Sequence record: MT682709.1
From: Escherichia phage vB_EcoM_SP1
Strand: one strand, 5' to 3'
Length of the DNA stretch: 64,000 bases
The stretch's first letter is position 1. Each line of letters starts with the position of its first letter. Shown here one piece after another: positions 26,251-28,111 of this stretch. Under the pieces are notes generated by a model. The model did not search any database, had not been told where the DNA came from, and saw nothing but the letters and a program-made list of their open reading frames with translations. A program made the position numbers and the translations under genes.

Positions 26251-26834
26251 TGATTAAATTGGTATTCGCTTATTCTCCAACTAAAACTGTCGAAGGCTTT
26301 AATGAATTAGCATTCGGTTTAGGTGATGGTTTACCATGGGGACGAGTTAAAAAAGACCTCCAGAATTTTAAAGCTCGTACTGAAGGCACAATTATGATTA
26401 TGGGTGCTAAAACGTTCCAGTCATTGCCTACATTACTTCCAGGTCGTAGTCATGTGGTGGTATGTGATATTAAACGCGGCTATCCTGAAACTAAAGATGG
26501 TGATTTGGCTCATTTTTATATTACCTGGGATGAGTATGTTACCTTAGTAGCCGGTGGACGTATCCAATTATCTAGTCCTAATACAACTTTTGAAACGTTT
26601 ATCGATTCCAGTGAAAATCGCATCAGTGTAATTGGCGGACCCGCTCTGTTATATGCTGCATTACCTTATGCAGATGAAGTAGTTGTTTCTCGCATCGTTA
26701 AAAGGCATCGTGTTAATTCAACGGTTCAATTAGATGCAAGTTTTCTTGATAATATAAGCAAGCGTGAAATGGTTGAAACCCATTGGTATAAAATAGATGA
26801 AGTAACAACCCTTACGGAATCAGTGTATAAATGA
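26250..26834 (+). CDS. frd: dihydrofolate reductase
   Basis: 194 aa; DHFR fold motifs (LPW, GxxTF); synteny upstream of td. Confidence 0.9.
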
Positions 26835-26854
26835 AATAACGCGTGGCGGAAAAT

Positions 26855-27205
26855 ATGAACTTTAATTATTATCCTATTCTATTAGAAAAAGACGCGAAAC
26901 AACCAAAATGGCAGGGTCCTCAGTTTATCAAAGGCGTCTATCAATTAGTAGTTCCCAAAGACAAGATTTATAGCAGCAGTTATTGCACTGAATCCGCTTG
27001 CAGTATTTTCGGTAATAGTTCTCCGTATTGGAATTTTGATATAAAACTGGATAGAAATATCGATATTTGGTTGAAAGCTATGGATATTGGCAATATTACG
27101 TTTGATGAGAATAATTATCATATTATTGGTCGCTTTTCCAAACGCGGTAAAGAATTGTATTTCACGCCTGAAATTGAAAGAAAATTTGATGCTAAACCGT
27201 ATTGA
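26855..27205 (+). CDS. hypothetical protein, 116 aa, inserted between frd and td
   Basis: ORF from ATG 26855 (GTG at 26843 possible); no recognisable motif; occupies a 420-bp segment not expected at the T4 frd/td overlap. Confidence 0.5.
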   Translation: MNFNYYPILLEKDAKQPKWQGPQFIKGVYQLVVPKDKIYSSSYCTESACSIFGNSSPYWNFDIKLDRNIDIWLKAMDIGNITFDENNYHIIGRFSKRGKELYFTPEIERKFDAKPY

Positions 27206-27211
27206 TTATTT

Positions 27212-27234
27212 AGCTTCATAAAATGTATTATAAT
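27212..27234 (+). promoter_or_regulatory. possible MotA-dependent middle promoter upstream of td
   Basis: MotA-box-like AGCTTCA at 27212 and TATAAT at 27229. Confidence 0.3.
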
Positions 27235-27250
27235 TTATATAAGGTACTAA

Positions 27251-28111
27251 ATGAAACAATACCAAGATTTAATTAAAGACATTTTTGAAAATGGCTATGA
27301 AACCGATGACCGAACAGGCACAGGAACAATTGCTTTGTTCGGTACTAAATTACGCTGGGATTTAACTAAAGGTTTTCCTGCAGTAACGACTAAGAAGCTC
27401 GCCTGGAAAGCTTGTATTGCTGAGCTAATATGGTTTTTGTCAGGAAGTACTAACGTAAATGATTTACGATTAATTCAGCATGATTCATTAATTCAAGGCA
27501 AAACAGTCTGGGATGAAAATTACGAAAATCAAGCAAAAGATTTAGGATACCATAGCGGTGAACTTGGTCCAATTTATGGAAAACAATGGCGTGATTTTGG
27601 CGGTGTAGACCAAATTGTAGAAGTTATTGATCGTATTAAAAAACTGCCAAATGATAGACGTCAAGTTGTTTCAGCATGGAATCCAGCTGAACTCAAGCAA
27701 ATGGCATTACCGCCTTGTCACATGTTCTATCAGTTTAATGTGCGTAATGGCTATTTGGATTTACAGTGGTATCAACGATCAGTAGATGTTTTCCTCGGTC
27801 TTCCATTTAATATTGCATCATATGCTGCGTTAGTTCATATTGTAGCTAAGATGTGTAATCTTATTCCTGGAGATTTGATATTTTCTGGCGGTAATACTCA
27901 TATCTATATGAATCACGTTGAACAATGTAAAGAAATTTTACGTCGTGAACCTAAAGAGCTTTGTGAACTGGTAATAGGCGGATTGCCTTATAAATTCCGT
28001 CATCTTTCTACTAAAGAACAATTAAAATATGTTCTTAAACTCAGGCCTAAAGATTTCGTTCTTAAAGGTTACGAATCACACCCTCCTATTAAAGGAAAAA
28101 TGGCGGTGTAA
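27251..28111 (+). CDS. td: thymidylate synthase, intronless
   Basis: 286 aa continuous ORF matching spliced T4 Td; no group I intron interrupts the ORF. Confidence 0.95.
   Translation: MKQYQDLIKDIFENGYETDDRTGTGTIALFGTKLRWDLTKGFPAVTTKKLAWKACIAELIWFLSGSTNVNDLRLIQHDSLIQGKTVWDENYENQAKDLGYHSGELGPIYGKQWRDFGGVDQIVEVIDRIKKLPNDRRQVVSAWNPAELKQMALPPCHMFYQFNVRNGYLDLQWYQRSVDVFLGLPFNIASYAALVHIVAKMCNLIPGDLIFSGGNTHIYMNHVEQCKEILRREPKELCELVIGGLPYKFRHLSTKEQLKYVLKLRPKDFVLKGYESHPPIKGKMAV

Follow-up and report, generated by a model that had tools for sequence, protein, structure and literature searches.

A gene between frd and td of Escherichia phage vB_EcoM_SP1 and its probable loss from the T4 lineage

The frd–td region and its intervening gene

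The subject of this analysis is td.1, a small gene that separates frd, encoding dihydrofolate reductase (DHFR), from td, encoding thymidylate synthase, in a stretch of 64,000 nucleotides (nt) of Escherichia phage vB_EcoM_SP1 (MT682709.1), referred to as a whole as the window. The window is a segment of a Tequatrovirus genome, its frd–td region being 99.9% identical to the record of Escherichia phage 132. The gene order is gene 32, frd.3, frd.2, frd.1, an open reading frame (ORF) of 81 amino acids (aa), frd, the 116-aa ORF that is td.1, and td. According to the ORF list and, for frd, the annotation of phage 132, frd (194 aa) lies at 26250–26834, td.1 runs from an ATG at 26855 through its stop codon at 27205, and td (286 aa) occupies 27251–28111, all on the plus strand, as are the other features of the window described below. 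The end of frd, the start of td and the limits of the 116-aa ORF are the ones given in an initial annotation made from the sequence alone. An upstream GTG at 26843 offers an alternative start for td.1 and would give a protein of 120 aa. Comparison of junctions delimits a spacer of 20 nt between frd and td.1 (26835–26854) and one of 45 nt between td.1 and td (27206–27250), the latter identical in T2H and teqhad. The window td is intronless, whereas td of T4 carries a group I intron. Many close relatives, among them KMB39, FL33 and FL34, have both td.1 and a group I intron with I-TevI, and the presence of td.1 and that of the intron are therefore not linked.

Judged by sequence and position, the 116-aa ORF is the already catalogued gene td.1. 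In T2H (AY262132.2; ABI48932.1, "hypothetical protein") the gene sits in the same slot between frd and td, with flanking spacers and 9-bp repeats identical to those of the window, and its product is 97.4% (tblastn) or 98.3% (global alignment) identical to the window protein, differing in being one codon shorter (115 aa). The window protein matches the phrog_1928 profile with E = 1.2e-33, residues 4–112 aligning to profile positions 2–125 of 126. This family, which bears an unknown-function label, is also matched by all 47 of the aligned td.1 relatives and by a downstream paralogue found in other lineages. Searches of Pfam, NCBIfam, PADLOC and PDB sequences with the single sequence and with a profile returned nothing credible for td.1, in line with the initial impression that the ORF has no recognised motif, and a Foldseek search against viral predicted structures matched only uncharacterised proteins of T4-like phages. 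A literature search covering td.1, RB32ORF229c, phrog_1928, frd/td polymorphism and screens of accessory genes yielded no work on td.1.

The gene is widespread in T-even phages. The DNA of the segment is present in 363 phage records including T2, RB27, RB32 and RB33, to which tblastn adds RB3, RB14 and RB18, and the protein is 95–100% identical across about 345 records. The reading frame is intact in 578 of 579 tblastn hits. One observation that the initial annotation had named as weakening its view of the ORF as an unusual insert, the same ORF with an assigned function at the same position in most T-even genomes, holds for its position and not for its function. Relatives in phrog_1928 are confined to phages; a search of 1.84 billion proteins gave 42 cluster representatives, and all are 95–139 aa long except two fragments of 37 and 49 aa.

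Substitution patterns point the same way as the intact frame. Synonymous and non-synonymous differences between the window and T2H, teqhad and NHEP29 number 10:2, 14:3 and 34:11, respectively. The ratio of non-synonymous to synonymous substitution rates (dN/dS) of td.1 is 0.040–0.043 at dS of 0.18–0.93, compared with 0.23 for frd and 0.07–0.13 for td. A ratio near 0.04 implies that td.1 is functional, and by this measure purifying selection on the protein is strong. Among 47 diverse members aligned, four residues (W19, G92, K96 and G98) never vary and five others (Q16, G27, Y29, F94 and F103) hardly do. An alternative is that the ORF is spurious and the segment a non-coding spacer. The stretch is left unannotated in several T2 records, and the record of phage 132 (L001, MZ417521) omits td.1 at 3111–3387 and calls two other short ORFs inside it, one of 58 aa on the minus strand and one of 39 aa on the plus strand. 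The probability of this alternative is close to nil: it is refuted by the large excess of synonymous changes, and the intact frames, the profile-level conservation with its four invariant residues and a confident fold prediction also stand against it. Annotation of the locus thus needs cleaning up, since the gene is missed in the closest GenBank record and mislabelled in others.

Origin of the T4 junction

Both ends of the td.1 segment carry the 9-mer TAAATGAAA. By sequence count, the left copy lies at 26828–26836, spanning the frd stop codon and a vestigial ATGAA start, and the right copy at 27248–27256, spanning the td start codon; they are exactly 420 base pairs (bp) apart. Purohit and Mathews reportedly described the corresponding T4 junction as an ATGA overlap of frd and td in 1984, and in the T4 record frd (locus 5110–5691) and td (ending at 5113) do overlap by 4 bp. 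The sequence across the T4 junction, TATAAATGAAACAATACC, corresponds to a merger of the two copies in the window. The repeats, the T4 overlap and the 9-mer across it had all been noted in the initial annotation and are borne out. Excision of exactly one 420-bp repeat unit from the window yields the T4 junction, and the window with 26837–27256 removed aligns to T4 in a single gapless block of 281 bp at 95.4% identity. T4 and the window thus share the flanking genes and differ at the junction by one repeat unit.

The fused junction is nevertheless a rare state, not the T-even norm. It was found in only 32 records, namely T4 isolates and close kin (RB55, RB59, vB_EcoM_112, HY03, SG1, G28, F1 and others). 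These records were counted with a probe of 41 bp able to match fused junctions only; an 81-bp probe was uninformative, as BLAST joined pieces across the insert. Outside the genus, at least eight other T4-like lineages have a td.1 homologue of 27–65% identity as the next gene after frd. They adjoin frd in Jiaodavirus JD18, Gelderlandvirus S16, Kagamiyamavirus EcS1, Kanagawavirus Entb_45 and Marfavirus R3_1, in four metagenomic T4-like contigs (L011, L012, L015 and L016), and in phages of Serratia, Morganella and Providencia. The position immediately downstream of frd and upstream of td is held in the window, in T2H and in the other lineages, with one exception in a further contig (L017). Identity to the window protein falls from 98% in T2H and 92% in NHEP29 to 62–65% in L011 and L012, 47% in Entb_45, 33% in JD18, S16 and R3_1, and 28% in EcS1; for td, in the pairs measured, the values are 97% for T2H, 85% for NHEP29 and 75–80% for more distant phages. 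The graded divergence of td.1 is consistent with vertical descent.

With the slot filled across genera and the fused junction limited to T4 kin, the filled site is ancestral and the T4 junction derived. We therefore regard the 420-bp segment as td.1, an accessory gene that the frd–td operon of enterobacterial T4-like phages had from the start and that was lost in T4 rather than inserted elsewhere, and assign this reading a probability of roughly 0.8. The T4 lineage would have lost td.1 when the two copies of TAAATGAAA underwent illegitimate recombination or allowed slippage during replication, and the deletion would have retained one 9-mer, joining frd and td in the ATGA overlap. From the sequences compared, deletion between the repeats appears the most economical history. 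Deletions between short direct repeats are familiar in T4 from the classical end-points of rII deletions. The loss of td.1 resembles these in that a 9-bp direct repeat flanks the deletion and one copy is kept; it differs in being deduced from comparative genomics and not seen experimentally. What follows is a correction to a T4-centred assumption: the textbook overlap of frd and td would be a rare state resulting from a 420-bp deletion, at a site where most T-even phages have a gene.

The initial annotation had offered two origins, a discrete insertion or a deletion in T4. The second is supported by the exact 420-bp excision and the fused junction in 32 records; the first would have a mobile or horizontally acquired cassette landing in an overlapping frd/td junction and duplicating a 9-bp target, and is very unlikely. 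The direct repeats at both ends do look like a target-site duplication, and a mobile insertion would also leave an empty site in outgroups; the repeats are present, but the outgroup sites are filled. The same gene fills the slot in the 363 records, homologues do so in every other lineage examined, and the "empty site" is restricted to the T4-like records. No integrase, transposase or endonuclease was found in the segment by Pfam and NCBIfam searches or by hhalign against I-TevI. Nor do large protein collections contain a near-identical donor outside the genus: no relative above 65% identity was found outside Tequatrovirus in 5.8 billion proteins, which argues against a recent donor.

The left repeat has an explanation of its own. 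In NHEP29 and L011 the ATG of td.1 overlaps the TGA of frd (TATAAATGAATTTTAAT) exactly at the site of the left 9-mer, and in the window ATG-AAA-TAA at 26831–26839 forms a remnant ORF of two codons. On this comparison, the left 9-mer is a former, translationally coupled td.1 start, now a remnant, and since td.1 starts there in NHEP29 and L011 it is a leftover start codon, with no need for a target-site duplication. TAAATGAAA occurs at both ends because in each case a TAA or TGA context is followed by a gene whose first bases are ATG-AA. A block of 24 bp that includes the frd/td.1 spacer repeats ATGAA and is absent from NHEP29; it shifts the working td.1 start to 26855, which is preceded in the spacer by a weak Shine-Dalgarno sequence, GGCGGA, at 26845–26850. 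Likewise, about 30 bp of the td.1/td spacer, holding the whole of a promoter-like element, is absent from NHEP29. Read together, the alignments indicate that the overlap of td.1 ATG with frd TGA is the older arrangement, and that the window-type allele gained the 24-bp spacer and the 30-bp promoter-like block.

The locus is polymorphic, with three alleles within one genus, which is a further point in favour of insertion. The third allele, in EC121-type phages, has a gene of 68 aa (phrog_9550; gene Y) between frd and td, with overlapping stop/start junctions. Gene Y occurs in about 135 records (>= 90% protein identity, Tequatrovirus-level), for example at 1838–2044 in EC121 (L009); the gene also lies at 3148–3354 in L008, 3173–3379 in L007 and 4670–4879 in L011. 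It is 79% identical to its Marfavirus copy, although td.1 between those genera is only 33% identical, and it shares 43% identity with genes found in Phapecoctavirus phages, which are unrelated. From these similarities gene Y looks horizontally mobile, so genes do enter this region.

Some observations weigh against the loss of td.1 from T4 as the whole account. The direction of the event is deduced from the distribution of alleles and was not observed. TAAATGAAA is common: the window has 10 copies against 3.6 expected, a number reached in 0 of 100 shuffles. The 9-mer is frequent because it spells stop-ATG-Lys, and the excess probably reflects a stop-start-Lys context favoured at gene junctions of this phage; its presence at both ends of td.1 is partly forced by coding and proves little alone. 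Finally, the genomes are mosaic. Between the window and NHEP29, identity is 92% for td.1 and 85% for td against only 58% for frd, a disparity between td.1 and frd which indicates that the locus recombines, and dS is 0.93 for td.1, roughly half the values for frd (1.77) and td (1.87). The better conservation of td.1 relative to its flanks is a sign of strong constraint as well as of mosaic exchange at this locus, and td.1 alleles may have spread horizontally within the genus.

In most of the other lineages td.1 is followed by a tandem gene, X, which in five lineages matches phrog_1928 with E = 1e-33 to 1e-38 and is therefore a paralogue of td.1. It is found at 4332–4673 in L011, 2809–3159 in L005, 2814–3185 in L006, 2790–3143 in L008 and 2817–3176 in L007, and carries an insertion of about 20 residues after a QKKW motif (consensus around PTIxQYKxNP). 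In several lineages gene Y comes after X, just before td. A second phrog_1928 copy was not found elsewhere in the window; window-type phages have lost X. The exception to the frd-side position, in L017, is a divergent family member (P0014) at 1248–1577, away from frd and upstream of an RlaP-family gene, on a contig that also has a RegB-like gene. In Entb_45 (L007) frd itself is annotated as two pseudogene fragments (2002–2516); downstream of these, the td.1 homologue, the paralogue and the 68-aa gene are all intact.

Predicted structure and possible roles of td.1

An AlphaFold model of td.1 built on the 47-sequence alignment has a predicted local distance difference test score (pLDDT) of 92.5 and a predicted template modelling score (pTM) of 0.85. 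The predicted fold is almost entirely beta, with strands at 6–12 and 27–34, three short strands, a helix at 69–77, another short strand, and a long hairpin formed by 87–97 and 100–105. The protein has an isoelectric point (pI) of 8.46, with 16 K+R against 14 D+E (the family median pI is 8.8), and no hydrophobic segment was found in the family. Conserved aromatic and basic residues fall in the first long loop, at the start of the second strand and in the C-terminal hairpin. Corresponding elements make up the binding face of oligonucleotide/oligosaccharide-binding (OB) folds. The order of elements in td.1, considered apart from coordinates, is compatible with a barrel of five strands in which a helix separates strands 3 and 4, and extra short strands are present. 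The systems considered close to td.1 include the OB-fold nucleic-acid-binding domains (S1, RPA70N, Teb1, Cdc13, RecO and HIN).

The leading suggestion, held tentatively, is that td.1 encodes a small accessory protein with an OB-like domain rich in beta structure, soluble and mildly basic, that presents its conserved W19, Y29, F94, K96 and F103 on the OB ligand face. Produced alongside DHFR and thymidylate synthase, this protein would probably bind either a nucleic acid or a protein partner in the early or middle phase of infection. The proposal of a ligand is based on the tight, often overlapping coupling to frd and td, on the OB-like features of the model and on the slow evolution of the protein. 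A more specific and quite speculative version, which we consider improbable, is that phrog_1928, comprising td.1 and its tandem paralogue, constitutes a structurally unclassified ligand-binding module of the phage thymidylate cycle, acting either as an adaptor of DHFR and thymidylate synthase in the dNTP-synthesising complex or as an RNA-binding regulator of frd–td expression. If true, such a role would explain the lasting place of td.1 beside frd in T4-like phages with many enterobacterial hosts, its frequent translational coupling and its slower evolution relative to the neighbouring enzymes.

A role in countering host defence or in host takeover, as raised in the initial annotation, would make td.1 a small early protein inhibiting an immune or housekeeping factor of the host, with the gene kept where that factor is met and lost elsewhere, as in T4. 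Such a role would be compatible with the deletion history; we consider it possible but rather unlikely. The gene is small and non-essential, varies in presence within one genus, belongs to an early/middle region rich in accessory ORFs, and has a family restricted to phages. Counter-defence proteins usually diversify rapidly, unlike td.1 with its dN/dS of about 0.04 and 95–100% identity, and the genes for them usually cluster in variable islands, unlike the fixed frd-side place of td.1 across many host genera. No PADLOC family matched at E up to 10, and with a pI of 8.5 the protein is not acidic and so not a DNA mimic of the Ocr/Arn type.

Two further functions are suggested by existing labels. 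In the BASEL phage Bas44 (L014, 1501–1848) and in KarlGJung td.1 is labelled "putative homing endonuclease", and in SF2-1 and pSe_SNUABM_01 it is apparently labelled "putative glucose-1-phosphate adenylyltransferase". Both labels are unsupported. As an optional ORF between two conserved genes, td.1 does resemble I-TevI and the T-even genes of the seg and mob groups, and a GIY-like tripeptide (KGVY / HGIY) is conserved in it, so that a free-standing homing endonuclease gene or its decayed remnant might be considered, in keeping with the Bas44 label. It is, however, highly improbable. An hhalign comparison with I-TevI gave 1.2% probability over 11 residues only, and neither the GIY-YIG catalytic domain (PF01541), with its GIY, YIG, Arg and Glu motifs, nor any other Pfam domain was hit at E up to 10, in a run in which I-TevI itself scored 2e-18. 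The almost wholly beta fold predicted for td.1 also speaks against the label. At 116 aa, td.1 is also short of the ~200–250 aa of such enzymes with their C-terminal DNA-binding module. It has neither the nuclease motifs nor the fold or DNA-binding domain of the seg/mob and I-TevI proteins, and it is ancestral at its site, not sporadic. The homing-endonuclease assignment is rejected at the level of sequence and fold.

Since T4 does without it, td.1 is presumably dispensable in the laboratory, and the natural pair of T2 with the gene and T4 without it makes td.1 easy to test. With its small size, its restriction to phages, unusually strong constraint and a confident predicted structure with no solved relative, the phrog_1928 family is a reasonable small experimental target rather than a surprising discovery.

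Signals in the spacers and a neighbouring ORF

The initial annotation recorded a MotA-box/-10-like element and a separate Shine-Dalgarno sequence for td in the td.1/td spacer, and both are present, the promoter-like element as a consensus match. Middle promoters of T4 that depend on MotA have the consensus (a/t)(a/t)(a/t)TGCTT(t/c)A about 11–13 bp upstream of a TAnnnT -10 element. A pattern match and a sigma-70 scan place a candidate middle promoter at 27210–27236, comprising the MotA-box-like TTAGCTTCA (27210–27218) and a -10-like TATAAT (27229–27234) or TAATTT (27231–27236), located 10 bp and 12 bp downstream, respectively. As a consensus match only, TTAGCTTCA fits eight of the nine MotA-box positions, with A for the first T. 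Motifs of the class GCTTYA-N10-13-TANNNT are over-represented in the window, with 23 occurrences against 9.4 expected. The Shine-Dalgarno sequence of td, AAGG, reads at 27241–27244, 6 nt before the ATG.

The td leader (27195–27270) can fold into a hairpin of -10.7 kcal/mol in which the region after the td.1 stop codon pairs with the Shine-Dalgarno sequence and start of td; its significance is marginal (z = -1.93, with 6 of 200 shuffles folding as well). The frd/td.1 spacer showed no significant RNA structure (z = +0.88 against shuffles). A comparison with known RNA families gave a single match in the region, to a long non-coding RNA at E = 0.3, which was discarded as due to chance.

Upstream of frd, the 81-aa ORF (phrog_3183) at 26005–26250 lies between frd.1 and frd and overlaps frd in a TAATG. 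At this site T4 has only a 71-bp gap, which retains the start region of the ORF and its last bases. On the strength of these remnants, the 81-aa ORF also seems to have been deleted in T4.
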